DNA of 64,000 nucleotides from an uncultured Candidatus Saccharibacteria bacterium (GCA_964469335.1 CAYXYK010000004.1:101362-165361), one strand, 5' to 3'. Numbered from the stretch's first letter, positions 6,697 to 39,600 are shown. The notes: a model not told the origin generated them from the letters alone. A program made the numbers and translations.

Positions 6697-6718
6697 TGCT
6701 ACAGTATAAGCGAACAAC

Positions 6719-13373: not shown

Positions 13374-13491
13374 TTGACAGGACATTCTGTTGATTGTCTG
13401 GGGATAACTTTCAATATTTCCTTATTTTCCAAGATAAAATTGGAATATCGACCCTCGAGATTCCCACAGTCTCGAGCTTCGTGGCGTTCCC

Positions 13492-22146: not shown

Positions 22147-23454
22147 ATGAAAAGATCCGGCCCACACCAATTCATGTTCATCCTGATCTCGCTTCTTGCG
22201 ATGGTACTTCCGTTTGGAGTCATTGCCGCAGACGAAAGCTCACTCACGATCACAGTCACACCGCCATTGTTCCAGGTTTCTCAGCCGGCCGGCACTGATT
22301 GGCGCAGTCAACTTCGACTGGTCAACAGCAACAATTATGATATTTCCATCACGGTGACTGCGCAGGATTTCCATCCGGACGGAGAGACAGGAAATGCGGT
22401 GTTTGAAGAAGGGGAGAAGGGGACCCCGACGGACTCTCGACGCATGTCCGGTTGGATCGAGGTGCCACCGGGGCTGCTCACGATTAAGCGCGGCAGTACC
22501 GCAGAGATCCCATTTACGATACACGTTCCACCGAATGCTGACCCGGGCGGACATTACGGCGGGCTTCTGGTCAGTACTCGTCCAGGCGACACTGGAGCTG
22601 GGAGTGGCGCTGGTATCTCATCAGGCATTACCTCGCTCATCTTCCTTCGTGTTCCTGGTGACGTGGTGGAAAAGGGAAGTATCAGAGATTTTTATACTGA
22701 AAACAGTGTGATCGAATCCCCTGATGCACGTTTTGTGCTGCGGTTCGAGAATGAAGGGAATGTGCACATTGTTCCACAGGGAGAGATCGTCATCACCAAT
22801 ATGTGGGGGAAGGTCCGCGGCAAGGTAAGCATCAACGAGAGTAGTACCTTCGGCAATGTACTACCGGAGTCAACCAGAAAATTCGAGTTCAACTGGAAAG
22901 AGCTCGACCCGAGCCCATTGGAAGTCGGCCGCTATAAGGCCATTGCGACCATCGTCTATGGGGTTGAGGGTCGACAAACCGTGGAGCGCACAGTCTTTTT
23001 TTGGATCGTACCGTGGAAGCCAGTCGCCTCCATCCTCGGATCACTGTTCTTCTTCATTTGGTTCATTTCCTGGTCGCTCCGACGTTATATCAAGAAGGCG
23101 CTCATGATGGAGCGTGTCCGACTTGGGATGACTGAACAGGAATTTGTCGCATATCGTGGCGGGCCGAAACAGGAAAAGCCTCAGCAGCCTACCTTGACCT
23201 TTTCCGCACTCAAACAACCACTCCGTGCAGCATCACTCAACCTTTCGCAAGACCGGATGACCTCATCACCGTCAGTATCAACACAAAAAAGAAAGAAATT
23301 GAAACCCGGAGTTGTCGCAAAGTTGCGCGCGTATCGCCCGCTGATCATCTTCGTGCTCGTACTAGCAACAGGGATCTCACTCATCAGTTGGTATTTCGTA
23401 GAGGTGTTTCAGGATGAAAGGGCCTACCACGTCGAGCAGATCCGCCCGCGTTAG
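22147..23454 (+). CDS. CscA-like (DUF916/DUF3324-like) cell-surface protein paralog
   Basis: The architecture matches the 20898 gene (FFWIVPWKP + TM + basic tail), and the start is 1 nt after the upstream stop. Confidence 0.55.
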   Translation: MKRSGPHQFMFILISLLAMVLPFGVIAADESSLTITVTPPLFQVSQPAGTDWRSQLRLVNSNNYDISITVTAQDFHPDGETGNAVFEEGEKGTPTDSRRMSGWIEVPPGLLTIKRGSTAEIPFTIHVPPNADPGGHYGGLLVSTRPGDTGAGSGAGISSGITSLIFLRVPGDVVEKGSIRDFYTENSVIESPDARFVLRFENEGNVHIVPQGEIVITNMWGKVRGKVSINESSTFGNVLPESTRKFEFNWKELDPSPLEVGRYKAIATIVYGVEGRQTVERTVFFWIVPWKPVASILGSLFFFIWFISWSLRRYIKKALMMERVRLGMTEQEFVAYRGGPKQEKPQQPTLTFSALKQPLRAASLNLSQDRMTSSPSVSTQKRKKLKPGVVAKLRAYRPLIIFVLVLATGISLISWYFVEVFQDERAYHVEQIRPR

Positions 23455-23577
23455 AACTTTCAGAAATGGGAACCTTCTACTTGCAGGACCCCCCAGTGAT
23501 TCGGTCAACGTACTATGAGTACGTCTTCCTCATCACTTTCCCCGCGCCTTGAATTTTCCTCATTTCTGAAAGTTCTC
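23453..23577 (+). repeat. structured intergenic element, copy B (terminal inverted repeat + conserved core GTCAACGTACTATGAGTACGTCTTCCTCAT)
   Basis: The 18-nt arms AGAACTTTCAGAAATGgg / CTCATTTCTGAAAGTTCT flank a core that is near-identical to 33299..33328. The inner stem gtgat/atcac covaries with atgcaat/attgcat in copy A. Confidence 0.45.
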
Positions 23578-23703
23578 TTTGTAAATATTTAGAGTTGATG
23601 CTTACTCTGTGCGCCACGAACTTTGCTCAGTTTCGCAGCTTCTATACACGTTGATGACGCCTCAAATTTCATCTATATATAGAGTGATAAAAGTAGGCGA
23701 AAC

Positions 23704-23770
23704 TGTGGATAAGTAGAGCCATATTCTTGGTTATCCACCTCTATTTGGCTCTTATCCACAGTTATCCACT
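23704..23770. promoter_or_regulatory. cluster of four DnaA-box-like 9-mers
   Basis: The boxes are TGTGGATAA (23704-12, inverted), TTATCCACC (23731-39), TTATCCACA (23752-60) and TTATCCACT (23762-70). Two are perfect matches to TTATCCACA and two differ by one base. An AT-rich tract lies upstream and a TATAAT at 23809 downstream. Confidence 0.45.
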
Positions 23771-24008
23771 TTGGGCGCACCATTTTCCCACAGCTAAGAT
23801 ATAATGTTTGATAGGTGCGAAGACCATCAACTCTGCGAGTATCGATGATCAGATCACCATCAGGACAATCATCCCAATTGTTGTCAGAATCAAAATAGAT
23901 TTTCCATTGTATACGCTCTCGCCTTGCCCCACACGGCGAAAGCACTGAAGATTACTTGTCGTTTAATATTCAGTCTCTCACAGCCATTATTTGTTTTAGC
24001 TTAGTTCT

Positions 24009-25166
24009 ATGAACTATCTTAGTTCTTTCAAACAGCTTTCACGCGCGAAGCAGATTGCTGTGCTGCTCATTGTGAGCACGTTTACATGGGCTGTCGGAGT
24101 TCCAACATTTTTTGCTACCGCTTCTGCGGCGCAACTCTCGCTCGTTAGTGCGACCGCATCGTCGTCTGTCCCTGCAGCAGTCACCAACATGACACTGCGC
24201 TACACCTCGACTACTACAGTTTCGACAGGTCAGACTATCGCGATCCAGTTCAGTCCTGGCCATAATGGTGGCACTGACGAATACAGTCTCGCATCCCTCA
24301 CCGTCAACGATGTTGTCGGACAGGCGGGTGTGACGGTCATTACCGCAGCTTGTGGTGCAGTCACCGCTAACCAGGTCTCAATCTCTGGTGGTATCGCCAA
24401 CGCTGCCGGAAACCGAACCGTCACCCTTACTGCATGTGGTGCAGTCGCTGCGCAGCAGATCACCATCGGATTCATCAACAATCATCTCGTCAATCCGACC
24501 ACGACCGGTTCATACAAGATCACCATCGGCGGCACTCAGACTGACTCAGGAACCGCAATGACCGCCATCCTCAACCAGGTCACCGTCACTGCTTCAGTCG
24601 ACACAACCCTTACCTTCACTGTTTCGGGTGTCGCAGCAGGTCAAAGCATCAACAACGAGCAAGTTTCGACAACTTCGACCGCAGTTGCGATCGGATTCGG
24701 CACACTCGCTTCGGGTACCCCGGTCGTCGCCGCACAGGACCTCACCGTGGCAACAAATGCGCAGAATGGATTCATCGTTACTGTACATGAGGACCAGAAT
24801 CTCCTCTCGGCGAACGGTGCTGATATCGACCTCTTCCAAGACGGAAATGCCGTTGCGACACCGATCGCTTGGGCGACTCCGACAGCAGTGCTTGGAACAG
24901 AAGCTACATATGGCCATATGGGTATCACTAGTAACGACACTGACCTCAATGCCAACGAGTTCTTCTCAGGATCGGTCATCAAATGGGCAGGTAATTTCTA
25001 CCCGACCACCACTCGTACCATCTTCTCAAATACCGGTCCGGCTGATGGTGTAACTCAGAATATCGGTAGAGCACGTGTCGGTTATAAGATCCTCGTCTCC
25101 AACCTCCAGGAAGCCGCAACGGATTATACCAACCACCTCATCTACGTTTGCACCCCGACATTCTAA
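24009..25166 (+). CDS. secreted surface protein with WxL-like C-terminal domain (paralog of the giant-protein C-termini)
   Basis: The protein has a signal/TM, an Ala/Thr-rich beta domain, and a C-terminal ~170 aa (TLTFTVSGVAAG ... PIAW ... VIKW ... YVCTPTF) homologous to the C-terminus of the 1760-aa protein. Confidence 0.6.
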   Translation: MNYLSSFKQLSRAKQIAVLLIVSTFTWAVGVPTFFATASAAQLSLVSATASSSVPAAVTNMTLRYTSTTTVSTGQTIAIQFSPGHNGGTDEYSLASLTVNDVVGQAGVTVITAACGAVTANQVSISGGIANAAGNRTVTLTACGAVAAQQITIGFINNHLVNPTTTGSYKITIGGTQTDSGTAMTAILNQVTVTASVDTTLTFTVSGVAAGQSINNEQVSTTSTAVAIGFGTLASGTPVVAAQDLTVATNAQNGFIVTVHEDQNLLSANGADIDLFQDGNAVATPIAWATPTAVLGTEATYGHMGITSNDTDLNANEFFSGSVIKWAGNFYPTTTRTIFSNTGPADGVTQNIGRARVGYKILVSNLQEAATDYTNHLIYVCTPTF

Positions 25167-25196
25167 ACCACTCTTTGTCCAGATGGTGTCGCATGA

Positions 25197-25224
25197 ACAG
25201 CCCCCGCTCGGGGGCTGTTTTCTT
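25197..25224 (+). terminator. Rho-independent terminator
   Basis: The sequence is ACAGCCCCCgctcGGGGGCTGTtttctt. Confidence 0.7.
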
Positions 25225-25466
25225 ACACAACGCACAGAATTGCTGTCTTTTTCTTCGGCTTTGGACGTGGATCCAATCATCGTGGCGAACCACTTCATAT
25301 GAGAACCACAACCTCGCAGACTTAAATCCTGGCCATTTCTGAGCGTTCTATCTACATAAATGAGGATAGGAGAGCTTTCCAAGTAGGGTATCTCGGATAT
25401 AATTAGGAGGATTAACCTTTATTATTTGCCCTCCTACTTTTCCGTACGAATGAGTAGTCATTATTT

Positions 25467-26525
25467 ATGCAACCTTACAAAAAATTCTTAGCCTTCACCG
25501 TACTCTTCGCAGCGCTCCTCGTTGCGCTTCCATCCGAAGTGAGTGCGCAAGGGAAAGTGAGCTTCAGGCTTTCCCCGACCACCATCGAAGACAAGGTGGA
25601 CCCGGGAGCTGACCGAGATTTCGCGCTCAATATCGAGAATCAAGGCGATGCGACCGCAACACTCTACCCGTCGGCGCAGAACATCACCGGAATCGGTCCT
25701 GACCTTCACCCGATATATTCCTCTGCAAAGGATACAGAAGGATACGCACTTGCGTCGTGGATCACCTATCAAGAGAAAGAGCTTGTTGTTCGTCCTCATG
25801 AACAAAAGACCCTCCACTTCACCGTTCATTTCCCAAAGGATGCTCATCCGGGATCGCATATGGCCGGTGTGTTTTTGAGTGACAAACCTTCAGATGCCAC
25901 CCAGAGCGGATCATCAATCGGCTTCCAGATCGGAGCGATAGTGAATTTCCAGGTCGCAGGGGAGATCATTGAGGATACTCAGATCAGAGAGTTTTACACG
26001 ACAAAGGCGGTGTACAGCAATGCGGATGTGGGATTCACCACTAAGCTTGAGAACAGGGGCAATATCCTGTCTCGCCCGCACGGCCTTATCGACATCACCA
26101 ACATGTTCGGAAAGAAAGTCGCTTCCATTCCGGTAAATGACAATGGCGGCGGTATCTTCCCGAACGGTGTGCGTGAGTTCTCGAGTGTATGGAAGTCCGA
26201 CGATATCCAGCTTGGACGCTATGATGCCGTCGTTGCGCTTGCAGTCGAAGGACAGAATGGAACTCAGACGATCTCGCGTGTACTTCAGTTCTGGATCATG
26301 CCGATGAACATCATTGGACCTATCGTCGGAGGTCTGCTTTTTCTCATCATCCTTGTCTACGTCATCATCAGGCTCTACATCAGGAGTCAGCTCGCCGGAA
26401 TTTCCCGTCCGCGTGGTGCGTCACGCCGCTCTGATCCAGGACTATCGAAGAGTGCTGCGATCGTGATAGCACTGCTTGTCGCGATCATCATCGGATTCGT
26501 TATTTTATTCTTTTACTTCGGGTAA
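25467..26525 (+). CDS. CscA-like (DUF916/DUF3324-like) cell-surface protein paralog
   Basis: The protein has a signal peptide, two beta domains, QFWIMPMNIIGP + TM and a basic tail. It aligns collinearly with the 20898, 22147 and 60879 proteins. Confidence 0.55.
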   Translation: MQPYKKFLAFTVLFAALLVALPSEVSAQGKVSFRLSPTTIEDKVDPGADRDFALNIENQGDATATLYPSAQNITGIGPDLHPIYSSAKDTEGYALASWITYQEKELVVRPHEQKTLHFTVHFPKDAHPGSHMAGVFLSDKPSDATQSGSSIGFQIGAIVNFQVAGEIIEDTQIREFYTTKAVYSNADVGFTTKLENRGNILSRPHGLIDITNMFGKKVASIPVNDNGGGIFPNGVREFSSVWKSDDIQLGRYDAVVALAVEGQNGTQTISRVLQFWIMPMNIIGPIVGGLLFLIILVYVIIRLYIRSQLAGISRPRGASRRSDPGLSKSAAIVIALLVAIIIGFVILFFYFG

Positions 26526-26527
26526 AA

Positions 26528-26648
26528 GCTGTTTCAAATTTAGCGATTATCTTCAGCAAAACAACCACCCGCGACTCACCTTACAATAAGTAAGGCTCGT
26601 CTAGCGAGTGGTTGTTTTGTTTCGCTTCTCATCTAAATTTGAAACAGG
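26528..26648 (+). repeat. long nested-hairpin element immediately 3' of stop codon
   Basis: The outer inverted repeat is GCTGTTTCAAATTTAG / CTAAATTTGAAACAGG. The middle stem is CAAAACAACCAC / GTGGTTGTTTTG. The centre is CCTTACAataaGTAAGG. Confidence 0.45.
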
Positions 26649-26706
26649 TTCGTAAGCTGGCGTCAGTAATGTGAAATAGATTTACTGTTTATGTTACGAT
26701 GAAGGC

Positions 26707-27648
26707 ATGGAAGACCGTGTCGTTCTCCGTCCAACGCGCATCACGTCGAAGCATGTAGGACATCATAATCTTACCCCGAGCGGAGAACCTCCGCGCAGGA
26801 AAAAAAGGAGAAAGAGTAAACTCCTACAAGGTGCATTCATTACTGTTGGAGCGATGGCGATGACGGTACTTATCATACATGCCAGTGACTCGTTCAAGAA
26901 CCCGAACGATCTTGTTGCGGGAGTCGGAGGAGTAGCCGCACCGTCCGCACGTTGTCCGAGCGACATGGTATTCGTTTCCAGCCCAAACGGGGGATTTTGT
27001 ATCGACAAGTATGAGAACTCACCAGGGAAGTCGTGTCCGCACAGTGATCCGAAGAATCAATTCGAAACCAATGACAACATGTCGCAACCACTCTGTGTAT
27101 CGGTCTCTGTTCCTGAGTCCGACCCATGGGTAAATATCCCCGTCACGCAGGCGATGGAGATCTGCACAAGGGGAGGTAAGCACTTGGCGAGCAACGGCGA
27201 ATGGTACCGCGCCGCACTTGGTACTCCTGATACCGTCAACACGGAAATCGGAAGCCCGAATTGCGTACTCGGTCGCATCGGCGTGAGTCATGGAGAGAAG
27301 ACGGGGAGTCATAGTGCATGCGTTTCTTCTGTTGGGGCTTTCGACATGGTCGGGAATGTCTGGGAATGGGTCGACGGAAACATTGTGAACGGTATATACG
27401 AGAAACGCGATCTTCCGCGCGAAGGGTTCATTACGGAGACAGACGTCGATGGTGTCCCAGTGTCTGTTGCAAGTTCTTCTTCCGAAGTATTTCACGGTGA
27501 TTATTTCTATATCAAGCGGGACGGGGTCAGCGGAATGCTTCGCGGCGGATTCTGGAATCTCTCGGAAAAAGCTGGGGTAGCGACGGTGAATGCGACCATC
27601 CCGACGACGTTCGTTGGTAGTGCTGTCGGCTTCCGTTGCGCCAAATAA
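26707..27648 (+). CDS. membrane-anchored FGE-sulfatase (SUMF1/EgtB/PvdO-like) domain protein
   Basis: A basic N-terminal tail and one TM precede FGE-type motifs (GEWYRAALG, DMVGNVWEWVDG, LRGGFW, VGFRCAK). Confidence 0.75.
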   Translation: MEDRVVLRPTRITSKHVGHHNLTPSGEPPRRKKRRKSKLLQGAFITVGAMAMTVLIIHASDSFKNPNDLVAGVGGVAAPSARCPSDMVFVSSPNGGFCIDKYENSPGKSCPHSDPKNQFETNDNMSQPLCVSVSVPESDPWVNIPVTQAMEICTRGGKHLASNGEWYRAALGTPDTVNTEIGSPNCVLGRIGVSHGEKTGSHSACVSSVGAFDMVGNVWEWVDGNIVNGIYEKRDLPREGFITETDVDGVPVSVASSSSEVFHGDYFYIKRDGVSGMLRGGFWNLSEKAGVATVNATIPTTFVGSAVGFRCAK

Positions 27649-27650
27649 GA

Positions 27651-27686
27651 AAGCGTAGGAATAGCGATCTATTCCTACGCTTTGTT
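27651..27686 (+). terminator. hairpin terminator
   Basis: The hairpin AAGCGTAGGAATAgcgatcTATTCCTACGCTTtgtt has a perfect 13-bp stem. Confidence 0.55.
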
Positions 27687-27750
27687 AGAGACAGCATGAA
27701 CGCCAATTCATATTGCGGAAGAGTGAAAATCGCCGTAAAATTAAGGAGAT

Positions 27751-28194
27751 ATGGCAGATACAACTCCGACAGCACCCGTATATCGATTCCGTTATGCGAC
27801 GCTGATTATTGCGATCGTGATTTTCGGGCAGTTACAGTTGCCACACGTTTCCTTTTCGCAGATGGCAAGTTCCGCATATCAGAATCTTGCGAACGTCTCC
27901 TCGATCAATGCAGCGGTTCCACCGAACGAATACAATACGCTTGCGCAGCAATTTTCTGAAAAAGACCGTGAACTCACCGCTCGAGAGCAGGAGCTGATTG
28001 CACGAGAAAAGGCGCTCGATGCGAAGTATCAGGAAGAGATCGCGAGCACCAAACGTACGACACTGCTGACCATTCTTGGTGCGACAGTCATACTGATACT
28101 TCTGATTTTGGCGAATTTCTATTTTGATATCAAGCGGGAAGAGGAACGTGAGCGGGTGCTCAGGGCCGAACGAGGCGAATCTTCTCCCCTATGA
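27751..28194 (+). CDS. hypothetical bitopic coiled-coil membrane protein
   Basis: The protein has an N-terminal TM, a Glu/Arg-rich coiled coil, a second TM and a basic/acidic tail. Its stop overlaps the next start (ATGA). Confidence 0.45.
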   Translation: MADTTPTAPVYRFRYATLIIAIVIFGQLQLPHVSFSQMASSAYQNLANVSSINAAVPPNEYNTLAQQFSEKDRELTAREQELIAREKALDAKYQEEIASTKRTTLLTILGATVILILLILANFYFDIKREEERERVLRAERGESSPL

Positions 28195-29114
28195 GTCAGC
28201 GTGTCGTACTCAAGCCCGTTCGTGTCTCTTCTCGTCAACCCGATGCTCCGAGAAGAAAGAAGAAGCACAATAATCTCTGGAAAGGGATACTTGTCGTGCT
28301 TCTCTCGACAGGTCTCACGACACTTGCGATCAAGGCGAGCGACTCGTTCGAGAATCCCTCTGCACTCATTGCTGGAGTCGCGGGTTCAAAGCAGGCACAG
28401 GTCGACACGCATTGTCCTCCAGAAATGGCATATGTCAGTACTGCGGAAGGTGGATATTGCATAGACAAATATGAAGTATCCGCAGGGGATACCTGTGCTC
28501 GTACCGATCCTGCAAATGAATTTGAAACCCAAGCGGATCTTACTGACCCGAAATGTCTCCCGGTCTCACAGGTCGGGAATCCACCATGGGTGAATGTCCC
28601 GCTTCATCACGCTATGGCGATCTGTGCGAAAGTAGGGAAACGACTTCCAACCAACAAGGAATGGTATCGATCGGCAATAGGCACACCTGACAATGTGCAA
28701 TCGGACGATCCTTCCGCGTGCGCGCTTGGAAAGACCGGGCAAACGCATTCCGAGCCGACTGGGGTGCGATCAGCATGCGTGTCGTCATTCGGAGTCTATG
28801 ACATGGTCGGCAACGTATGGGAGTGGGTCGACGGACAGGTCGAAGACGGAAAATACGGAAGCCGCTTCCTTCCGAACGACGGTTATGTCGATGAAGTTGA
28901 CGTCGATGGTGTGCCGACCAAAACCGCGACCACATCCGATCTCGCGTTCGGGGAAGACTACTTATTCGTCGATCATTCGGGGGTACGAGGGATGATCCGT
29001 GGAGGATTCTGGTCGCTCAAGGAAAAAGCCGGCATCTTTGATATCAATGCCACCATTCCCACCTCCTTTGTCGGCGATGCGGTGGGATTTCGCTGTGCAA
29101 AAGACGCAAGCTGA
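28191..29114 (+). CDS. membrane-anchored FGE-sulfatase domain protein (paralog)
   Basis: The protein has the same motifs as the 26707 gene (KEWYRSAIG, DMVGNVWEWVDG, IRGGFW, VGFRCAK). The two proteins align collinearly. Confidence 0.75.
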   Translation: MSQRVVLKPVRVSSRQPDAPRRKKKHNNLWKGILVVLLSTGLTTLAIKASDSFENPSALIAGVAGSKQAQVDTHCPPEMAYVSTAEGGYCIDKYEVSAGDTCARTDPANEFETQADLTDPKCLPVSQVGNPPWVNVPLHHAMAICAKVGKRLPTNKEWYRSAIGTPDNVQSDDPSACALGKTGQTHSEPTGVRSACVSSFGVYDMVGNVWEWVDGQVEDGKYGSRFLPNDGYVDEVDVDGVPTKTATTSDLAFGEDYLFVDHSGVRGMIRGGFWSLKEKAGIFDINATIPTSFVGDAVGFRCAKDAS

Positions 29115-29178
29115 AAATCCAAATGATGTCCACTGGATCACTGTGGCGACATCACGGTGAGTTTTCGTTATTGCATAG

Positions 29179-29184
29179 TATAAT
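29179..29184 (+). promoter_or_regulatory. -10 element TATAAT 6 nt upstream of ATG (leaderless transcript predicted)
   Basis: The sequence is catagTATAATatttgcATG. Confidence 0.45.
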
Positions 29185-29190
29185 ATTTGC

Positions 29191-30903
29191 ATGAGGTCTT
29201 CGCGTATGTTCACACGTATACTTTTGTTTTTCGTCGTGGCACTCACCGGGACACTCTTCCTCCCGGATGCGGTCGTTGCTGGTCCGACATATTTCACTAG
29301 TGATTTGATCACCGACTCGACACCTGCGGGCACGTCGACAACGCATACGGTGACGTTCAATCCGGGTCTCGCGATACCGACTGCTGGAAAGATCATGATC
29401 ATTCCTGAGCCGAACGGCGGAGGGGTATTCACTGTTCCTCCCGCACTCAACCTTGCTGATATCACACTTGAAGTATCCGCAGGAGGAGGACCGTTCGTCG
29501 CGCGTCCGCTTGCGCTTCTTCCTTCGGGTGTCAGCGACGGGGTGACAGTCACCACAGGTGTGAACGGTTTCATCACCTTCGACCTCGCGACCGGTGTTCC
29601 TGGGATCGCCGCGGGCGACACGGTAAAAGTCACAATAGGCGGAGCGAACTTCATCACTTCGCCAGCGGTGCAAGGTTCCTATCGTATCCGCATCCGTACG
29701 TTTGACGCTGCGAGTCTCCCACTCGATGTCGGAACCGCGATGATCGCCATCGTCGAACGGGTCACCGTCACCGGCGACATCCAGGTCATCGTTCCACTCC
29801 GCTCGAACGGTTTGCCGACGGGCCTCCTGCCTGGTGCGACAACGAATGTCCTAGTTTCCTTGAACACTGACATTCCTGCATTCTGTAAATATGCGACGAC
29901 TTCAGGAGTCGATTTCTTCGCGATGTCGTCGACGACGATATTCCTCGACGCGAATGCGGGGCTCCTCCATTACATCAATGTGCCGGTGTTCGAGAACGAT
30001 ATCTTCACATACTACCTTCGCTGCGTGAGCTCGAATGGTAATCCGAATCCCGATGACTACGTGATCACATTCGAGATCGGTGTCATACCGAACGCATCGA
30101 CAACGCCCCTCCCTCCGCCTCCGCCCCCGACTCCCTCAGGTCCGTCGGGTGGTGGCGGGGGAGGAGGGCTGTTCCTCAAGGGCGGAGATGTCACTATTTC
30201 TGGTACAGGAATTCCGGGCGGCGCACTGACCATTCTCAAGGACGGTAAGATCGCAAAGGAAGATCAGGTCTCCGTTACCGGCTCGTTCACGAACGCATTC
30301 ACTCAGCTCGACCGCGGTACGTATACGTGGGGAGTCTACGTGAAAGACCCTGACGGTAATCTCTCCTCGACCTACAATTCCACGATCTATCTCATCGGCG
30401 GTACCAACAATATCATCGCACCGGTTTACCTCTCTCCGACCATCAAGGCTGCCACTACGACGGTGCCTATCGGGGGATCGCTCCTGATTTCCGGCTACGG
30501 TATCCCGCTTACCACGGTGCAGGCGATCATGAACAAGCAGGGAGATGTGCTGAACTCGAAGATCATCACCGGGACGACCACATCGAACGGGAACGGTTCA
30601 TGGAAGATGGTGCTTTCGACCGAAGGACTAAAGAAGGGAACCTATGAAGTGAAGGCACAGTCGCTTGTGACGACCAGGGACCAGAGCGTCTTTTCCCCGA
30701 CCCTCTACATCGGCGTAGGCGAGAACCCCAATCCGAATTTCAAGAATCGCGCAGATCTCAACAAGGACGGCAAGGTCAACTTGGTCGACTTCTCTATCTT
30801 GCTTTTCAATTGGAAGACGAGTGATGCGGTCGCTGATATCAATCAGGATGGGACGGTGTCGCTGATCGACTTTTCGATCATGCTCGCCAACTGGACCGGC
30901 TAG
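29191..30903 (+). CDS. secreted multi-domain protein with C-terminal type-I-like dockerin
   Basis: The protein has a signal peptide, beta domains, a Pro-rich then Gly-rich linker (PPPPPPTPSGPSGGGGGGG) and Ig-like modules. It ends with the two-segment dockerin DLNKDGKVNLVDFSILLFNW ... DINQDGTVSLIDFSIMLANW. Confidence 0.75.
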   Translation: MRSSRMFTRILLFFVVALTGTLFLPDAVVAGPTYFTSDLITDSTPAGTSTTHTVTFNPGLAIPTAGKIMIIPEPNGGGVFTVPPALNLADITLEVSAGGGPFVARPLALLPSGVSDGVTVTTGVNGFITFDLATGVPGIAAGDTVKVTIGGANFITSPAVQGSYRIRIRTFDAASLPLDVGTAMIAIVERVTVTGDIQVIVPLRSNGLPTGLLPGATTNVLVSLNTDIPAFCKYATTSGVDFFAMSSTTIFLDANAGLLHYINVPVFENDIFTYYLRCVSSNGNPNPDDYVITFEIGVIPNASTTPLPPPPPPTPSGPSGGGGGGGLFLKGGDVTISGTGIPGGALTILKDGKIAKEDQVSVTGSFTNAFTQLDRGTYTWGVYVKDPDGNLSSTYNSTIYLIGGTNNIIAPVYLSPTIKAATTTVPIGGSLLISGYGIPLTTVQAIMNKQGDVLNSKIITGTTTSNGNGSWKMVLSTEGLKKGTYEVKAQSLVTTRDQSVFSPTLYIGVGENPNPNFKNRADLNKDGKVNLVDFSILLFNWKTSDAVADINQDGTVSLIDFSIMLANWTG

Positions 30904-31026
30904 CAGTTCGAAATTGAGCGAAATACTTCGTTGAAACGCTGTTGAGCGCCTCGCCTTACACGGAGTGAGGCTCGGCCTGCTCTACAGCGTTTCGCCTTGT
31001 ACTTCATCTCAATTTTGAACTGCTAG
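30899..31026 (+). repeat. long nested-hairpin element overlapping the stop codon
   Basis: The outer inverted repeat is GCTAGCAGTTCGAAATTGAG / CTCAATTTTGAACTGCTAG. The centre is CCTTACAcggaGTGAGG, the same core as at 26578. Confidence 0.45.
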
Positions 31027-31224
31027 ATGATAGCTCGCGTCTCGGGTGGGGGGCGCACAAATGAGTTACAAACACCACATACAAAAAATTACTCTGTGAA
31101 TCCACTGGTTCTCCACAATTGTTTTGCAACTATGTTGTGCAAGTTGATTGAAGGGACGTATAATGTAGGTAATAGTTCGTGTGCGTCATGGAGGGACGCA
31201 TTATAAATAATTTGTACTTTTATC

Positions 31225-31731
31225 ATGAGTTCGTTCTTACAAAAACTGAAAGGAAAAGGTGTCGGAGTGACGGAAGACCACACAGCCGAGCCTGTGCATT
31301 CACAGAAATCCGATGTTCCCTCGGGTGTGACGCAACTGCCGGTCGACGTGCAGCAGAGTGATACCGAGATCATCATCTACGCGCAAGTCCCGGGTACCGA
31401 GATCAAGGACCTTGATGTGTCGATCGAGGGTGACAATGATGTCATCACCATCCAGGGTACATCGCGCAGACCCTCGGAGCTTGTTGGCGGTAAATCCGAA
31501 GAGGAAAGTGCCGTCATCATCAAGCAGGGTCGCGTCGCAGGACACGAAGACTTCACGCTCGAAGAATGCGCGTGGGGGAAATTTTTCCGCCAGATCATCC
31601 TTCCCCAAGAGGTTGATGCGGCATCAGCTCAGGCAAAAGTGAAAGATGGCGTGCTCGCGCTTCATCTTCCTCTCAAAGGTCATGCTACCAACAAGATGCG
31701 CATGCATGTCGAGCGCGTCGATTCTGTATAA
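31225..31731 (+). CDS. Hsp20/alpha-crystallin family small heat-shock protein
   Basis: The protein has the ACD core (DVQQSDTEIIIYAQVPGTEIKDLDVSIEGDNDVITIQG ... FRQIILPQEVDAASAQAKVKDGVLALHLPL). Confidence 0.85.
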   Translation: MSSFLQKLKGKGVGVTEDHTAEPVHSQKSDVPSGVTQLPVDVQQSDTEIIIYAQVPGTEIKDLDVSIEGDNDVITIQGTSRRPSELVGGKSEEESAVIIKQGRVAGHEDFTLEECAWGKFFRQIILPQEVDAASAQAKVKDGVLALHLPLKGHATNKMRMHVERVDSV

Positions 31732-31746
31732 CGACACACTTGCACG

Positions 31747-33261
31747 GTGAGTCCGTGCGCGCGCGACCATAGTATGCTGAAATCCTTCACGAGAATAGAT
31801 TTGCCCAAGTTCCTTCTCGGAGCGGTTTCGATTTTTTTCATACCGACTTTTGCGCTCACACAGACAGGAGCATCACTTTCTATCTCTCCGGACAGCGGGA
31901 CGTTCGCGGCGGGGAAGACATTCACCGTCAATATCGTCATCGATTCTGCTGATGGGTTCAATACCGGCAACGCGACGCTCAACTACGACCCTGCGGTACT
32001 CTCTGCGACCGGCGTCTCGAAAGGTAGTTCCGCTTTCTCCCTCTGGGCGGTCGAGCCTTCATTCGACAACAGTAAAGGTACGGTCAGTTTCGAAGGTGGG
32101 AATACCTCACCTCTCACCGGCAAGAAGACCATCCTTTCCGTCAGCTTCAGGGGCCTCACTGAAGGAAAGACTGACCTTTCGTTCTCGGCAGGTTCCGTGC
32201 TTGCGGCGGATGGAAAGGGTACCGATATTCTCGGTGCAAAGAACGGTGCCTCTTTCACGATAGGAGCAAAAGAGCTTGCAGTTGAGCCGCCTCCCGCACC
32301 TCCTGCAGCGCCGACAGACACTGGTGGAGGAGGGGGCGTGAAGCCCGACGCTCCTATCGTTTCTTCTCCGACACACTCCGACGAGAGTCTGTACTACAAT
32401 GCGAAGAAAGCAAAGTTCACTTGGGATCTTCCTCCGGATGTCACGGTCGTGCGACTCGCGCTCGACACAAGCGGAAGTACTACTCCAACGACGAACTATG
32501 ATCCCGCGATCAGCGAAAAGGAATTCGATCAACTCACCGACGGAGTGATGTATTTTCATTTGCGATACAAGAACGACGGCGGATGGGGTCCGGTCACACA
32601 CAGGAAGATCATGGTCGATCGTACTCCGCCTCCGGCGTTCGAGGTTGAAGCGACCACGGATGCGTCATCGTCGGATGTCATTCTTAAGTTCTCTGCCACA
32701 GATACTCTTTCGGGTATAGATCATTACGAACTGACCGTAGACGGCGGGACTCCGGTGAAGGCCTCACTTGCCGAACTTCTTTCGGGAGAATACAACTTGA
32801 CCGGTCAAGAATTGGGTGACCACAAACTTAAGGTCGCAGCTTTTGATAAAGCGGGGAATGCGGGTGAAGGAGCAGCAAATTTCAAGATCACCTACGACGC
32901 AGAGGCGGCAAAAAAAGGACTCGACGAGGGAGAGGCGAAGCCCACTGATTGGCGACTGATCATCGATATCGTTCTGGTCGCGTTCATCGCATTCCTGCTC
33001 GGGTATCTGTGGTATGAGCGCGGTGCGTTCCTACATGAGAAATATGTCTCGAAACGCGAAGCGGACGAAGTGCGCGACAATCTTGGCAATATCTTTGCTG
33101 CTCTCCGTGAAGAGGTGGGAGAGCAGGTCACCTATCTTTTCGACAAGCCCAATCCCTCTGCACTCAACAGGGAAGTGCTTGGGAACATCAATGAAGCGAT
33201 TGATCTCTCGGAAGAGCTACTCTCCAAAGAAGTTGAGGACGTTCGTAAGTTACTTTCGTAA
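31747..33261 (+). CDS. membrane-anchored cohesin-domain protein (scaffoldin-like)
   Basis: A signal/TM precedes a cohesin-like domain (LSISPDSGTFAAGKTFTVNIVIDSADGFNTGNATLNYDPAVL ... FSLWAVEP ... GTVSFEGG). A Pro-rich linker, Ig/Fn-like domains, a C-terminal TM (LIIDIVLVAFIAFLLGYLWY) and a cytoplasmic acidic tail follow. Confidence 0.7.
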   Translation: MSPCARDHSMLKSFTRIDLPKFLLGAVSIFFIPTFALTQTGASLSISPDSGTFAAGKTFTVNIVIDSADGFNTGNATLNYDPAVLSATGVSKGSSAFSLWAVEPSFDNSKGTVSFEGGNTSPLTGKKTILSVSFRGLTEGKTDLSFSAGSVLAADGKGTDILGAKNGASFTIGAKELAVEPPPAPPAAPTDTGGGGGVKPDAPIVSSPTHSDESLYYNAKKAKFTWDLPPDVTVVRLALDTSGSTTPTTNYDPAISEKEFDQLTDGVMYFHLRYKNDGGWGPVTHRKIMVDRTPPPAFEVEATTDASSSDVILKFSATDTLSGIDHYELTVDGGTPVKASLAELLSGEYNLTGQELGDHKLKVAAFDKAGNAGEGAANFKITYDAEAAKKGLDEGEAKPTDWRLIIDIVLVAFIAFLLGYLWYERGAFLHEKYVSKREADEVRDNLGNIFAALREEVGEQVTYLFDKPNPSALNREVLGNINEAIDLSEELLSKEVEDVRKLLS

Positions 33262-33367
33262 CTGGCAAATTTCGTCGTTGCGGGTCCCATGCAATTCAGT
33301 CAACGTACTGTGAGTAGGTCTTCTTCATTGCATTTCCCGCGCCTCGAACTTTATCCAGTTATGAAAG
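33252..33367 (+). repeat. structured intergenic element, copy A (core GTCAACGTACTGTGAGTAGGTCTTCTTCAT)
   Basis: The flanking inverted repeat is CTTTCGTAACTGGCAAATTTCG / CGAACTTTATCCAGTTATGAAAG. The inner stems are gcggg/cccgc and atgcaat/attgcat. The core differs from copy B at only 3 of 30 positions. Confidence 0.45.
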
Positions 33368-33645
33368 AACTTGAATAAGTATTTAAAATTTTCCAATCAA
33401 AATTTGAGGGAAAAATCAATAATTTTTTGCACATTTTTTCTGAAAAAACGCTTAGATGGTAAGAATTTTTTCAAAGTGCAGTGAGATGCAAAAAAATCTG
33501 TGGACAACTCGTGTTGCTTCCACGAAAGCCCTCAGTTGAGCCATGGTTTAAGAGCGATTTTAGCCCTATTTGAAGCCGTATTTTGGCTTTTTTCTGGTAA
33601 AATTAAGCCTAGCCAATCCTTTTTGGAGGAGGGGTGTGTATTTTC

Positions 33646-36600
33646 ATGTACCGACGCCTACGAACCTATGCACGAAGAGTGATTCACGCGTTTTCAACGC
33701 GCACGAGAGTCGCCTCAACCCTACTTTTTCTGGTACTCAGCGGATGGCTTGTATCGCAGTTCGTTCTTGCCCAGAAGGAATTGAATGTCTACATCTTTCC
33801 GTCCGCAGTGACGAGTGATGGATGGAACGACGATATTCAATCGCTCAGCCAGGATCTTTCTCCTGACGCAACGCTTGCGAATTTCACTACACTCAATTCA
33901 GCATCCGTTTCGTTCGGGTCTCTGGGCGCGGCTCCTGTCGCGACCTCATCGGTTCCCGGCGTGCCCACACCATCAGAAAGCGATCTGAGTACTTCGCTTG
34001 AGAACGTACTTCCTACTACCCCGTCTGTGGTGCCTACTGCACTCCCACTCAACGGCAACGATGAGCCGATCCTCGTTCCTGCAGTGGGAGAGGCGACCAC
34101 ATCTTCGGTGATCAGTCTTCCTAATCCCTTCGTTCCTGTCACGCCGCTACCTGAGAGCATCACTGCCTCATCTGCACAATCACTAAATCTATTGCCGGAT
34201 ATTCTGACCGATTTATTTGGCGTGAAGAAAGTGCTTGCACAAGAGCATGCTTCAGCGACGCCCAATGTGAGTGTGTCCGAGACTACGACCCCTGTTGTGA
34301 TGAATCAGGAAGGAAATGCCAGTGCCACTTTGCCAACTGTACCGGAACCTTACGTCCCCACCCCGATGTCGGCTGATCCCTATTCTGTCGCTTCATGTAC
34401 GACACTGGGACTCACATGCCACCTCATGACCTTCGTCGGGTTCGGGCTCGGAGATGCCTTCTCATCCCACCCGCTCACTTCAGCGACACTTGAGCTTTCT
34501 GTTGCGGGTCGTTCAGAGCTTTCCGCCCTGCAGCATGACCGATTGTTGGTTCGTGTATTCCATGCAGGTCGTTGGGAATTCCTTGGCGAAACTGAGATCA
34601 AGGGTGAACTTTCGAATGCAAAACGCGGAGGCTACCTTTCGTATGATCTTCCTGAGATCGCTGATTGGAAAGACCTTTCGGACATGAAGGTTGTTGTTGA
34701 GTATGCGCGCGAAGGTGAAGGGAATGCATCGCTCCTCATCGACGGTGTGTGGGTGAATGCGAAATACGGTACTGATAGCATCTCCGCCGATGCGACACCT
34801 GAAGAGATCGCGCTCTCGCAGTCGAACGTACGCAGTACTTTGTTCGCAAAGGACGCAGAAGATCGAAAAGTGAGACGTGACATCCTTGATACTCCGGAAG
34901 GAAGGGAGATCGCGCTTATGCATGCGGATGAGCACGACGATGCGGACATCATCATCAAGACCGACAAAGAGATATATCGCACCCTCGGGAATACCTCTGC
35001 ATACTTCAATGTCACCAACCAAAGCGACAAGGAACAGGTCGTTCGGCTGCAGTTCCATTTTCCTGAGGGTGGCGGCGGAGTTGCATCATTGTCCCGCCTT
35101 TCTCGCTCAGTCCCGTACAAAGTAAGTAATCTGAAATACGATTCCGTCGGTTACTTCTGTGCAAGCGGATGGCAGAGCGCCTCGTCGACCGACACGAAAG
35201 GATTTACTTGTGTTGATATGAATGAGACCCGATCTTGTGATGCGCTCAACGACGATAAGACGAACTGTATCGTCAGTGGTGCGCGAGTCGGGCTCACAGA
35301 AGACATCGAATATCGTGACGGATGGGTTCCTAGCGCTCTTCTACAGGGCTCGTTCCGTGATGATGCGGGCATCTTCGCCAAGGCGATCGACCTCATTCTC
35401 GGTAAGTTGCCTTCGGGAGCGATCCCTCCTTCTGAACAGCCGGTCTCGTACATCGAGAATTCGGTACTTCTTCTCCCGGGGCAGACTGCATACCTTCGCG
35501 CAGATCTTGCGCTCCCACTCAATGGACGCGGGGATTTCTATATCGAGGGAGCAACGGAGAGCGGTGCGTACGGTCTCGTTCATGCCGCATGGGATGGTTC
35601 ATGGAACTACCGTGTGCCCGTTGATATCGATAACGAGAAAGTCGAGACTGAAGACTCGTATGCCGTCCCGGTGTCGCTCGACTCGCTTCCGCTCGCATTC
35701 TGGGACAGGGTCAACGCGGACGGCTCGGATGTCCGTTTCGTTGACGAGACCGGGACGCAGGAACTCCCGTACTGGCTCTCTTCGTGGAAATACGAAGACC
35801 GAAAAGCATTCGCCTGGGTGCGAATCCCGAAGACGAGCAATTCGACCACTACGCGCATCTATGTGTACTACGGTGATCATAGTGCCGCTTCCCGCTCGTC
35901 GCTCACTGCTCCGTTCCGTACCGATAGGCTCACTTCGCGCGCGGTGATCGCAGGCTCGAGTCAGCATGATATGACACTACTCGCAATCGCGCTCGATGAA
36001 GATACGCACATCCAAGCGGGGGAGCATGAGCCAGTCACTCTCAAGAAGGGAGAGACTGCACTCTTTGGGTCGCTCGCACCGGGCGATGTAGTCCAAGCTG
36101 ATGGGCCGATATCTCTTTCGCTTGAGTCGAGCGGTTCAGGTGCGACGGTCGTTCCATACGGATATACTGGCGGCAATTTCGTTATTCCGGGAATCGGCGG
36201 TGAGCGCATCCTTTCGATGACTGCCGTCGAAGATGGTGAGGTGCACACGGAGCTCAAGCGAGGGAGTGCTACTTCGACAACTCTCGATCCGATTGCAGGG
36301 ACGATCGTTTCGGATACGGTGGATCTCGACAGTTCGATCCGTGTCGATGCGGCAAGTGATGTCATGGCACTCCTTTCTGCGGGGGATGGCACGCGCCTTA
36401 CCCCGCTTTATCCGTCGACCGATGAACCGCTTTATGGTTTCATGCTCGGAAAGACAGTGGTTGGATTCGGAACAGACGGATCGACGATGAAGGCGGTGTG
36501 TGCCGGAGGTGCGGTCAAATCCGCCGACGGACGTAGAGACGGCATGATGACCGTCCTCGATCATTGTCAAAGTTCCGTTCTTCCTTCGCTCGCCGACGCA

Positions 36601-39600
36601 GTCCGTATCAGTGAGTTGGCGAATCCCGCGTCGGTGTTGTCCCTCGGAGGAGAGATGTTTACGAGTTTCATTCCGAAAAGCGAGTTCGCTTCTTCATACG
36701 TGCTCGCCGAAGATGCCGGGACTCTCGCATTCATTTGTGCTCCCGAGGACGGTACCATCGATATCGGTGTTTTCGACGCAGGTGGCGCGTTCACTGCATC
36801 CACCACTTGTGAAGCGCGCGGTGCACGACCGGGCAAAGCACTGATCGAAAGCGCGAACGGTTTCCATGCCGGATCGATCGTCCGCTCTCTCGATGCGACT
36901 TCTACAGTGTTCATGGCAGCATATCAGGCGCTCGGACGTTCACTTGCTTCAGGTGAAGTTGCACCACTCACCACACTTTACGGAGCTCCCCAGTTACGAT
37001 CGCATTCACCGAACCACCCGAGAGTGACCACTGGCGAAGAGGAATTCGTGATTCCCGGCGAACACCGCAAACTCGATCTGGACGAGGAGGGGAAGGAACG
37101 TGTACATGTCGATAAGTTGCTCACTACTAAGCGTGAGTTCTCTGTACACGAACAGCCGGGATTCCAGTTCCAGTACACTCCGCAATCGAATTCGGTGGTC
37201 CAAGGAGTGAGAGGAGCGTTCGGTGTCGCGCAATTCTCGGTCACGAAGGTTTCCCTTCGTCATGCGCAGATCGGAGAACTGGAAGTCGAATATGACATCG
37301 GATATGGAGATGACAATATCTGGTCGCTTTCACTCAAGAATGTCGATGGTCATCTCCGCCCCGGGAAGTACACGCTCCATGTGGAGATCGAAGAAGGAGG
37401 AAGCACATATGTCGATGAGTATGATTTCTACTGGGGAGTACTTGCGATCAATTACAACAAATCGATGTTCACTCCCGGAGAGACAGCCAACATCTCGATC
37501 GGGGCACTCTCGGATAACGGCAATACGATCTGTGATGCGATACTGAAACTTTGGGTCACTCCTCCTGGAGGCACGGAGATCGAACTCCCTGTGTCGGCAT
37601 CCGGACTCTGCGACGGAAACAATGTTGTCGATGTGCCTGATTATTCATCCAGCTATTCCTTCTCCAGCGAGAATGCAACAGGTACGTACAAGGTGAAGTT
37701 AGTGCGCTTCGACAGAGAAGGAAATATCGCGAGCCAAGTGACAGACACCATCTCAGTCAAAGATTCAGTCCCTTTGAGTATCGAACGCGAAGGACCGACA
37801 CGCATCTATCCTGTAGCACATTATCCGATGAAGATCCGTGTTACCGCAAATGAGGATTTCAAGGGTAATATCATCGAACGCCTCCCCGGTGATTTCGTCG
37901 TGATTGATCGAGGAAGTGCGGAGCTCGCATGGGGAGACAGTGAGCATAGCTACATGACCGCAACATGGCCGGTCGACATGAAGAAGGGTGCTGTCGTGAC
38001 TTTTGCATACGAGTTTGATGCACCCGATCGCTCTCCGTATCTTTATGAACTCGGACCAGCAAGCACAGACGGAGACGTCGTATTTTCTGAAGCGCGCAAA
38101 TGGCAGATCGCTTCGGACGCAGCCGGGAAAATGATGATCTATTGGGACCGTACCTATACTCCCTCTGGGTGGACATGCATCTCATGTCTTCCATCCGATG
38201 TGTTCTACAATCGTTTTGCGATGGGGTCATCGACATATGGCGGGTTCGGTGGGACGGCGACCCACACACCGACAGCTTCCGCGGCAGTCGCGTCATTCGG
38301 AGGTACGGGTGTCGGACCAAACACAACCAATAACACCAACAACGCTCCTCTCGGACACACCCATACATTGACTCCACAGATTTCTGGAGTATCGAACCTT
38401 CCCACCTACAGACAGCTCGCAGTCCTGCAATCCAATAGCGCAGGCGACCCGGCTTCGATCCCCGGAGGAGCGATCGTCATGTTCGATATTGCATCATCGT
38501 CGCTACCGTCCGGTTGGTATCGCTACACTCCACTCGATGGCCGTTATGTGAGAGGACAATCAACGAGCACGACAGGTGTGACTGGAGGAGCGAATACCCA
38601 CTCGCATACTGCGACAGGCACACTTTCTGTAGCGATCGGGTCAGGACTTCGCGAACAGAACGGAGTGGTGAACGGTGCAACTGACGTGAATCACACCCAT
38701 ACCCTTTCCGCGACGAACACCGATGTGCTTTCGAATGAGCCGCCGTATGTTGAAGTGCTGTTTGCGCAGCAACCGGCGACGTCGACACCGGTCAATTATA
38801 TGCTCACTATGTGGGAAAATACCCCGCCGAGCGGATGGACGACACTCTCAGATCCGGGAGGTCCGCTCGAAGGGAAGTTTCTCAAGGCATCTACGACCTA
38901 CGGACTGACCGGTGGTTCGGCGACACATGCCCACGCGGATATATTCGGGGCGACCACATCGGTGCAAAGTCTTCTGAATAACTACACGGCAAACGTATCG
39001 AATGCACAGGCTCCTGCAGCACATACGCATACTGTTGACATCACTGGTTTTTCCACCGATGACCATCGACCTCCATATGTCGAGGTGATCTTCGCGAAAC
39101 GCCTCTCGGGGGTCACATTGTGGACACAGCAGCAATATCGCTGGTACTCAAACACGAACGCGATCACTCCGGTCGACCCATGGCCACCGACAGGAGGTGA
39201 TCTCGGAGAAGATTCGGCGATCGACGGCGGCTCACTTGCTGTTCGGGTCGGTGATGTGCTCAGACTTCGCATGTCGATACTCGCGATGAATTCGACCTCA
39301 ACTGTCGGAAGTCAGGCGTTCAAGCTTCAGTATGCCGACTCGCTTGATTGTCCGAGTGCGCTCAATTGGGACGATGTCGCTCCGATGTCTTCAACGACCG
39401 CAGAGTGGCGAGGGTACAATAATGGCGCTGTGGCCGATCGCGCGACGCTTCCGTCCACACTGCTCACGCTTTCGAATATCGCAGAAAGTTATACCGAAGA
39501 GAATAACTCTACCAGTACCTCCGTCGAGATCGGAGTCGGGCAGGCAGGTGAGTGGGATTGGGTGCTGCAGTCGAATGTTCCGCTTCCGGGTACCAATTAT

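Follow-up and report, generated by a model that had tools for sequence, protein, structure and literature searches.

The ERIC/IRU sequences of Enterobacteriaceae and Vibrio are 127-bp imperfect palindromes in transcribed intergenic DNA, which often lie just after stop codons and have no known transposase. The Correia/NEMIS elements of Neisseria carry conserved 26-bp terminal inverted repeats and are bordered by a TA target-site duplication. Furthermore, Liang, Rudd and Deutscher reportedly demonstrated in 2015 that translation is affected by hairpins lying no more than 15 nt from a stop codon. REP/BIME and REPIN-RAYT sequences were described as extragenic palindromes found at gene 3' ends and in operons, with long vertical persistence and a proposed role in mRNA stabilisation (PMC3116915, PMC3337134, PMC3733652), and in other bacteria 3' stem-loops which lack a U-tract, contain more C than G and are located near stop codons were associated with Rho-dependent transcript ends (PMC13613805). 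We have found that a 64,000-nt stretch from an uncultured Candidatus Saccharibacteria bacterium (GCA_964469335.1 CAYXYK010000004.1:101362-165361), referred to here as the window and used for all positions below unless a locus is named, contains five full copies of a previously undescribed repeat that folds as a long hairpin on the stop codons of genes. The repeat is a lineage-wide gene-end element and is not limited to a few surface genes. In its behaviour it is closest to ERIC and also resembles Correia, REP/REPIN and attC, while lacking the defining features of each; what is unusual for a bacterial interspersed palindromic gene-end repeat is its radiation-wide breadth, stop-codon anchoring, strict orientation and pyrimidine-only unpaired face. 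The explanation that we tentatively favour is that of a hairpin co-transcribed with its gene, either at the 3' end or within the intercistronic spacer, which would define, protect or process the end of the mRNA and be read via its pyrimidine loops, and which as a repeat also duplicates and recombines.

An earlier note on this DNA had proposed five long nested hairpins with alike centres, forming one family next to stop codons. All five were found where the note had placed them or a few bases away, and they are copies of one repeat family, as judged from the sequence shared outside the stems and from covariance models that recover all five. Covariance model R1 was built from eight copies, the five of the window and three from related contigs, and model R2 from 112 copies. 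Run over the window with filters off, R1 returned the five full copies at 94-110 bits, all on the + strand; a 42-nt internally deleted mini copy and a possible decayed copy complete the tally.

23452-23576, + strand: full copy 1, with arms 23453-23468/23561-23576 (16 nt, 100% complementary); overlaps TAG 23452-23454, the stop codon of open reading frame (ORF) 22147-23454; R1 96.6 bits, R2 89.4 bits.
26526-26650, + strand: full copy 2, with arms 26526-26543/26633-26650 (18 nt, 94% complementary), middle stem 26557-26572/26604-26619 and apical hairpin CCTTAC-AATAA-GTAAGG; immediately 3' of TAA 26523-26525, the stop codon of ORF 25467-26525; R1 110.3 bits, R2 90.9 bits.
30900-31026, + strand: full copy 3, with arms 30900-30918/31008-31026 (19 nt, 95% complementary) and middle stem 30933-30947/30979-30993; contains TAG 30901-30903, the stop codon of a dockerin gene (29191-30903); R1 110.3 bits, R2 92.2 bits.
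33258-33365, + strand: full copy 4, with a shorter outer stem; contains TAA 33259-33261, the stop codon of a cohesin gene (31747-33261); R1 110.1 bits, R2 107.4 bits, with a model match span of 33248-33377.
53883-54008, + strand: full copy 5, with arms 53883-53900/53991-54008 (18 nt, 89% complementary); its outer stem runs 6 nt into coding sequence and it contains TAA 53887-53889, the stop codon of ORF 52348-53889; R1 94.5 bits, R2 70.4 bits.
27646-27687, + strand: mini copy, a 19-bp outer stem on the loop CGAT, laid out as stem-CGA/T-stem; overlaps TAA 27646-27648, the stop codon of ORF 26707-27648; R1 22.3 bits (E = 0.017, match 27647-27691), R2 21.3 bits (E = 0.021).
About 25226-25355, + strand: possible decayed copy, 3' of the intrinsic terminator of ORF 24009-25166; R1 19.4 bits (E = 0.067), not recovered by R2.

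In copies 1, 2, 3 and 5 the outer arms reported by the repeat finder are 16-19 nt long, 89-100% complementary and 89-92 nt apart, and the nearest relative of copy 4 is copy 1 (80% identity over 74 nt). The mini copy is the outer module joined directly, its interior gone save for the conserved first and last interior bases. The note had the hairpins beginning 0-3 nt after a stop codon, and a stop codon does mark the stem base or immediately precede it; more usually, the hairpin includes the stop codon itself.

The fold of every full copy is a single, irregular long hairpin, more stable than any of 200 shuffles and with an RNA z-score between -3.7 and -10.7. When the whole 64 kb was scanned on both strands in 130-nt sliding windows with correction for GC content, copies 1, 2, 3 and 5 were the strongest folding outliers on at least one strand (z of about -5.5 to -6.7) and the copy at 33258 was a weaker one (z about -3.2), and not one coding-region window in that scan reached z = -5; the elements thus have the exceptional folding energies that the note had expected. 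The eight-copy alignment gave an RNAalifold consensus hairpin of 37 pairs, 33 of which show compensatory changes. Among the 112 aligned copies 89% of cells are paired, compared with 55% after shuffling and about 35% when the partners were slid by 1-3 columns, and two-sided changes occur at 36 of the 37 pairs.

With about 43 pairs over ~125 nt, the element is an irregular hairpin in which four modules can be told apart: an outer stem of 15-19 bp, A/T-rich and different between copies, a conserved junction with left arm 5'-GCGA...CUUCGUUG and right arm CGCCUYGNA...CAU-3', a variable middle stem, and a conserved apical hairpin UCACC-GUAC-NNURA-GUAC-GGCUC. The consensus of the family under R2 is aaaaaguuucaaauuuggCgauCUgCUUCGUugcaauccgCaaauacuucacUCACCGUACauUAAGUACGGCUCgugcagcuuucuuccugcgCCUcGcAuuucAUccaaauuugaaacuuuUuuauua. 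The apical hairpin, which the note had described as the central one, is the best-conserved part of the family, a conservation that is inflated by the search pattern. The irregular junction lies outside that pattern and is conserved as well, at U33, C36, G41 and U42 on the left (CUUCGUUG) and at C196, C197, U200, G203 and A207 on the right (CGCCUYGNA), and the bulged CAU just 5' of the 3' outer arm is a third conserved site. The least conserved part is the outer stem, with columns of only 0.05-0.7 bits. A nested hairpin outside the family was also seen at 2167-2268, where a 12-bp outer repeat (2167-2178/2257-2268) surrounds a terminator-like hairpin (2198-2234) at the end of a SNase-like gene (1585-2196); it is not picked up by the covariance models.

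The position of the family relative to genes was examined by looking, in the orientation of the model, for same-strand ORFs of at least 80 codons whose stop lies between -15 and +25 of the element start. In 71 of 112 copies such a stop codon was found at the 5' edge of the element, with a peak of the offset at +2/+3, and the stops of 60 upstream ORFs, near-identical strain loci being excluded, are TAA (32), TAG (21) and TGA (7). A converging ORF meets the 3' edge in 15 of the 112 copies, most of which also have a sense ORF, and only ~6 copies abut an opposite-orientation gene alone. The family therefore has the gene-end preference that the note had suspected, and in addition a fixed orientation, with a bias of roughly 10:1 toward the sense of the upstream gene. 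Between convergent genes at loci L073, L059, L064, L091 and L087 (L numbers designate our loci) elements stand in facing pairs in which each follows its own gene, indicating that orientation tracks the adjacent gene and not the direction of replication of the locus. The upstream genes are diverse and mostly housekeeping, among them those for S12 (rpsL, three times), S7 (rpsG), S10 (rpsJ), SecY, GroEL, GyrA, Tgt, RNR, EF-Tu/G, RecA, PolA, PyrG and Pgk, so that surface genes are not the target and the surface-gene context to which the note had pointed is local to the window and incidental. Downstream, the next gene runs in the same direction in 49 cases, in 23 of which it begins within 100 nt, and is convergent in 34.

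Given its place on the coding strand, with the stop codon at its base, the element would be transcribed as the first part of the 3' untranslated region or of an intercistronic spacer. It is far larger than an ordinary intrinsic terminator and, again as the note had claimed, is not followed by a T-run: only 12 of 99 copies have a TTTT between positions -8 and +12 relative to the 3' edge, the 15 nt downstream are not enriched in T, and at least four T in the first 6 nt were counted in only 6 of 90 copies. Neither flank is enriched in A or T, and as both the upstream A-tract and the downstream T-tract are absent, a terminator acting in either direction was rejected. A scan around the elements for promoter and terminator consensus sequences gave nothing consistent. 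Canonical terminator-like hairpins follow 6 of 42 elements and 80 of 440 other ORF ends, being neither depleted nor enriched, which led us to reject the idea that the elements replace canonical terminators.

A 23-nt core pattern, TCACCNTACNNTRAGTANGGCTC, was searched in one genome per species and gave at least 116 loci, nearly all of them in metagenome-assembled genomes (MAGs) of Patescibacteria. Among the matches listed the carriers include Saccharibacteria, Kaiser-, Uhr-, Nomura-, Yanofsky-, Zambryskii- and Azambacteria, Paceibacterota and Minisyncoccia; the family is lineage-specific, as the note had suggested, and the lineage turns out to be the whole radiation of the Patescibacteria, the ultra-small bacteria also called the candidate phyla radiation (CPR). 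Carriers under other labels are "Bacillota bacterium OH_HFB_283" (at least 10 loci), Lentisphaerae GWF2_44_16, Patiriisocius and Wallbacteria, for which misbinning and transfer are not distinguishable. R1 found 117 full-length copies in 717 kb of pattern-matched loci, often several per 8 kb, and 11 copies at E < 0.01 in 139 kb of metagenome loci chosen only via their HSP20 homologue, the latter suggesting a density of roughly 40-80 copies per Mb. A looser core pattern gave 37 matches on viral contigs, all by chance and none confirmed by the covariance model. BLAST found no counterpart of the consensus in phage and plasmid collections, nor did blastn at word size 11 and E up to 0.01 in 5,426 complete genomes of E. 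coli, in which ERIC copies are present. Over the whole window no Rfam 15 family scored at its gathering threshold, matches at E up to 5 within 23300-33700 were at chance level (E >= 0.4) with none on an element, and the window contains no tRNA or tmRNA genes. A look-up of exact proteins for the neighbours of copies 1 and 5 returned no record, and in the literature we found no description of such a repeat in Patescibacteria.

Patescibacteria make up a large share of bacterial diversity, and to our knowledge almost nothing has been established on how they end, process or stabilise their transcripts. An element present at tens of copies per Mb, with one core over Saccharibacteria and many Parcubacteria-type lineages, would rank among their most abundant conserved non-coding features. 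The covariance model and consensus that now exist can be used for the mapping of transcript ends and for the pull-down of a putative loop-reading factor, and the element could also help to recognise gene ends, assembly breaks and misbinned contigs.

The two strands of the element are not equivalent. The helices are almost purely Watson-Crick, with 3392 of 3980 helix cells in that class, 161 G·U (81 of these at two positions), 144 A×C and 283 others. Each left arm was then aligned to the reverse complement of its own right arm, and on the mRNA-sense strand the non-complementary oppositions were C×U 370, U×C 367, U×U 123 and C×C 87, that is 947 pyrimidine-pyrimidine against 86 purine-purine, together with 291 A×C against 152 G×U. 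Bulged bases are pyrimidines in 379 of 482 cases, and the element has more C than G (0.276 and 0.200), as opposed to both flanks, where G exceeds C. Because the sense strand carries the pyrimidine-rich oppositions and the excess of C, the complementary strand folds better under RNA parameters; under DNA parameters the two strands fold about equally. An 11:1 pyrimidine bias is too large to be produced by mutation and indicates that one strand is under selection, and its presence beside such pure helices is a puzzle for current models of RNA elements and of mobile DNA. It can be read in two ways. On one reading the sense RNA must expose only pyrimidines, for example for a protein that binds YC-rich RNA, and this could also serve to avoid Shine-Dalgarno-like sequences, start codons or nuclease sites and to keep the hairpin meltable by the terminating ribosome; on the other, which we hold to be improbable, it is the complementary strand whose fold is functional, be it as single-stranded DNA or antisense RNA. 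The sense-strand reading is preferred because it also explains the stop-codon anchoring and the gene-linked orientation, which the other does not, but it does not account for the scarcity of G·U pairs.

When compared with described systems, the element shares with ERIC/IRU its size, a single long imperfect hairpin, a location in presumably transcribed intergenic DNA and often at stop codons, conservation over a large clade, the lack of a known transposase and a hairpin stability that depends on orientation. It differs in having variable outer stems around a conserved core and not conservation of the whole sequence, in the absence of any sequence similarity, as borne out by the E. coli search above, and in the roughly tenfold orientation bias and the extreme pyrimidine bias at unpaired positions. 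Like Correia/NEMIS and other miniature inverted-repeat transposable elements, known as MITEs, the repeats are short, non-coding, multi-copy palindromes at gene ends (5-7 copies in 64 kb here and several per 8-kb locus in many MAGs), are polymorphic between strains and would be co-transcribed; unlike Correia they are least conserved at their termini and show no detectable duplication. Conserved terminal inverted repeats that match an autonomous element are not seen either, as interiors that are 97% identical carry different outer stems. With REP/BIME the family has in common palindromic copies at gene 3' ends and inside operons and vertical persistence. REP units, however, are 20-40 nt long with a GTAG or CGTC tag, and a REPIN is two inverted REPs, whereas the present element is a single untagged hairpin of 125 nt whose arms are not palindromic units and whose consensus has no terminal tags; no RAYT (Y1 HUH transposase) was found among the recurrent protein clusters of the 8-20 kb loci. 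The stem-loops associated with Rho-dependent ends (PMC13613805) are likewise near the stop codon, without U-tract, locally richer in C than in G and composed of covarying pairs, but they are gene-specific and short, while ours form a homologous 125-nt repeat family with a shared core.

The likeness to attC lies in the layout: both are imperfect palindromes that stand in a fixed orientation at ORF 3' ends and frequently cover the stop codon, and they have in common a size within 57-141 nt, structure conserved over variable sequence, conserved unpaired features and a strand asymmetry. The apical hairpin, though, is the most conserved part of our element and is variable in attC. Neither of the attC core sites, R'' (RYYYAAC) on the 5' and R' (GTTRRRY) on the 3' side, is present, the poorly conserved outer stem being GUUUCAAAUUUGG...CCAAAUUUGAAAC, with GTT 5' and AAC 3', and copies do not form cassette arrays or attC clusters beside an integrase but are dispersed in conserved operons after housekeeping genes, with no integrase in the window. 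A classical attC site was rejected on account of the absent core sites and the genomic context.

Close relatives allow the behaviour of individual copies to be followed. Contigs L001-L010, which carry an identical HSP20 gene, are 97-100% identical to the window, and three sites differ among strains that are otherwise 97-99% identical, so that the element marks sites of difference between closely related strains. At the dockerin stop codon three alleles were found, namely the window copy at 30900-31026, an unrelated copy in L002 followed by a 122-aa ORF, and, in L006, L008 and L009, another copy followed by the right 35 nt of the L002-type copy and then the 122-aa ORF. This ORF lies between the dockerin gene and HSP20 (L002 240-608; L008 2077-2445; L006 5241-5609; L009 890-1258), is absent from window 31026-31225 and has no Pfam match on record. 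At the stop of the sulfatase-like gene (ORF 26707-27648) the mini copy of the window is set against a full, unrelated copy in L001, L003 and L006, and 3' of gene 24009-25166 a good unrelated copy of 62 bits is present in L003 (2683-2813) where the window has at most a relic. The terminator after the same gene varies by strain around the same loop (CAGCCCCC/GGGGGCTG at 25195-25222 in the window, CTGGCCTCC/GGAGGCCAG at 2647-2680 in L003); its stem differences are compensatory, and the flanking genes are 96-99% identical.

Orthologous copies common to strains that are 97-99% identical differ by only 0-3 nt, the orthologue of copy 1 in L003 differing by a 2-nt indel plus flank changes, and hypermutation of the elements was therefore rejected. 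The alternative alleles at the dockerin site come with a cluster of single-nucleotide polymorphisms (30870, 30873, 30876) in the last 33 nt of the dockerin gene, and the identity of L002 to the window jumps from 85% to 99% across the site. These two observations led us to reject clean insertion or excision between strains and argue that the alleles arrived by homologous recombination with divergent donors. The note had asked whether related genomes would reveal mobility: turnover at orthologous sites is indeed seen, and between strains it proceeds by such recombination. Segments between elements also diverge unequally between strains (96.5, 98.6 and 99.4%).

In distant relatives, at 45-65% protein identity, orthologous sites are patchily occupied, and how similar two copies are does not depend on whether they share a site. 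The most alike are pairs at different sites of the same genome, such as a pair in L170 that is 83% identical overall and ~97% over the inner 97 nt (GCGAUCUGC...CUCAUCC), with outer stems that differ and are each self-complementary, while two copies in L165 have common outer stems and different cores. At L170 2499-2818 tandem elements follow one gene, with a 56-nt spacer that holds a 14-bp inverted repeat (AAATTCATAGCATC...GATGCTATGAATTT), and half and mini copies exist in the family too. A copy in the rpsL-rpsG spacer is common to L110, L112 and L158, which belong to different genera, and is similar in its inner part, arguing for vertical persistence. In summary of these data, the family duplicates within genomes, swaps inner and outer modules, decays to partial forms and is gained and lost at orthologous sites. 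In the MAG OH_HFB_283 the element lies inside a composite repeat of ~290 bp (loci L048, L057, L074, L075, L080, L089, L101, L122 and L138), whose copies are 85-97% identical and stand at contig ends, breaking the contigs; an extra outer stem, TTGCCGGATTGG...CCAATCCGGCAA, encloses the element, more hairpins follow, and two copies have internal insertions of 56 and 69 nt. A TA duplication as in IS630/Tc1-like MITEs seemed possible by eye in five of eight copies and was rejected when it failed on 90, the maximal palindromes of which are flanked by no consistent direct repeat or TA pair. No transposase or recombinase is present in the window and none recurs near the copies, as the 1,649 ORFs from 116 loci cluster into housekeeping families, the largest present in eight loci. 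The classical MITE that the note had considered is thus not borne out by the ends, the flanks or the neighbours of the repeat.

How might such an element act? If it is co-transcribed at the gene end, as we tentatively propose, the RNA hairpin could define or protect the 3' end of the mRNA, as a stem-loop without U-tract may do in factor-dependent termination or exonuclease trimming, or it could alternatively be a processing site. Its unpaired residues, almost all pyrimidine, and its excess of C over G would provide a platform for a conserved trans-acting factor. A ribosome that terminates would have to melt the outer stem, whose base sits on the stop codon, and in this way translation of the upstream gene might be coupled to the element's state. 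The role as a terminator or mRNA stabiliser that was put forward in the note is plausible. Several observations weigh against this proposal. Classical Rho utilisation (rut) sites lack structure, in contrast to the highly structured element; ORF ends with and without an element are followed equally often by canonical terminator-like hairpins; and a strong terminator would hardly be expected within the tight operons that hold some of the copies. An RNA helix kept by selection does not usually have so few G·U pairs, here no more common than A×C, and RNA parameters favour the complementary strand in 99 of 103 copies (-58.3 against -46.0 kcal/mol), a result that taken alone points to the other strand. 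No trans-acting factor was identified, and a tblastn search of 1.4 Mb of DNA with an approximate E. coli Rho query gave no match, a result which is uninformative on the use of Rho. An extended form of the proposal, which we find doubtful, is that of an abundant, radiation-wide cis-acting signal, a structured platform anchored at the stop codon that marks gene ends in all major Patescibacteria lineages, its pyrimidine-only face recruiting a termination, decay or processing factor and its opening by the ribosome coupling translation to the fate of the transcript; in a second version the conserved ~95-nt core would be a mobile module that hops between pre-existing gene-end hairpins. If true, this would be a mechanism of gene expression specific to these reduced genomes.

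That the family might be selfish, non-autonomous mobile DNA of a MITE or REPIN-like kind, moved in trans and tolerated only at gene 3' ends without any host function, is a less probable account than co-transcription and is on balance unlikely, although a dispersed family at the density given above, the similarity of pairs within one genome, the tandem, half and mini copies, the composite repeat of OH_HFB_283, the patchy occupancy and the nearly pure Watson-Crick helices would all suit it. Such DNA would be expected neither to lack target-site duplications and a recurring transposase nor to have its termini as the least conserved part; one core is conserved over the radiation, the rpsL-rpsG copies persist in different genera, and strain alleles were swapped by homologous recombination. 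The orientation bias would have to mean that the opposite orientation is harmful, and the pyrimidine and orientation biases together need selection on one strand. Selection could in principle be acting on the complementary strand, as a single-stranded DNA hairpin for a structure-specific recombinase or HUH transposase (as with attC, IS200/IS605 ends and REP), or as an antisense RNA hairpin that keeps antisense transcription out of the gene. The better fold of that strand under RNA parameters speaks for it, as do its 3.9 G·U pairs per copy compared with 1.7 on the sense strand, its mismatches, which are G·A and G·T there instead of C×T and C×A, five likenesses to attC (location at the ORF 3' end or stop codon, orientation, ~125 nt, structure over sequence, unpaired features) and the unequal divergence of inter-element segments. 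We nevertheless consider it improbable, since the advantage in folding vanishes under DNA parameters, attC core sites are absent and the consensus outer stem reads GTTTC...GAAAC, the copies are dispersed after conserved housekeeping genes and not in cassette arrays, no integrase is present, no upstream A-tract could serve as the U-tract of an antisense terminator, and this account supplies no mechanism to link a template-strand hairpin to the stop codon. By far the least probable is that the elements are ordinary, merely long intrinsic (Rho-independent) terminators, in spite of their stable hairpins at gene ends and of the promoter-like intergenic region that follows three of the five window copies. 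Intrinsic terminators have a short G+C-rich stem of about 5-12 bp, a small loop and a U-rich tract directly after it; here the outer stem is A/T-rich, T-runs are rare, copies occur inside operons, as between rpsL and rpsG, and canonical terminators with T-runs coexist in the window at 2198, 3352, 11434, 25197 and 60727. A core conserved throughout a radiation is, moreover, not a property of intrinsic terminators. Co-transcription at the gene end remains the reading to which we give tentative preference.

Other features of the window were noted along the way. DnaA-box-like TTATCCACA motifs cluster intergenically upstream of + strand genes at 13365-13407, 23704-23770 (four boxes within 67 bp) and 58775-58827 (three boxes at 22-nt spacing), with single motifs at 31109, 33499 and 60813. 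With up to one mismatch there are 17 such motifs compared with 9.9 expected, a count that none of 100 shuffles reached; they may be a promoter or regulator motif rather than an oriC, and GC skew has no origin-like switch. From about 13.5 to 54 kb every gene lies on the + strand, in a run that starts with an HTH_17 (excisionase-like) ORF at 13492-13950. Downstream of the dockerin-domain gene 29191-30903 and the cohesin-domain gene 31747-33261, a single ORF of 6224 codons spans 33634-52308, and the + strand run with these genes may be a surface-protein island; a second dockerin gene is located at 61922-63124. Finally, an SOS-type cassette was found in which a Y-family DNA polymerase gene with IMS domains (4839-6116, - strand) adjoins a LexA-like Peptidase_S24 gene (6127-6897, - strand).

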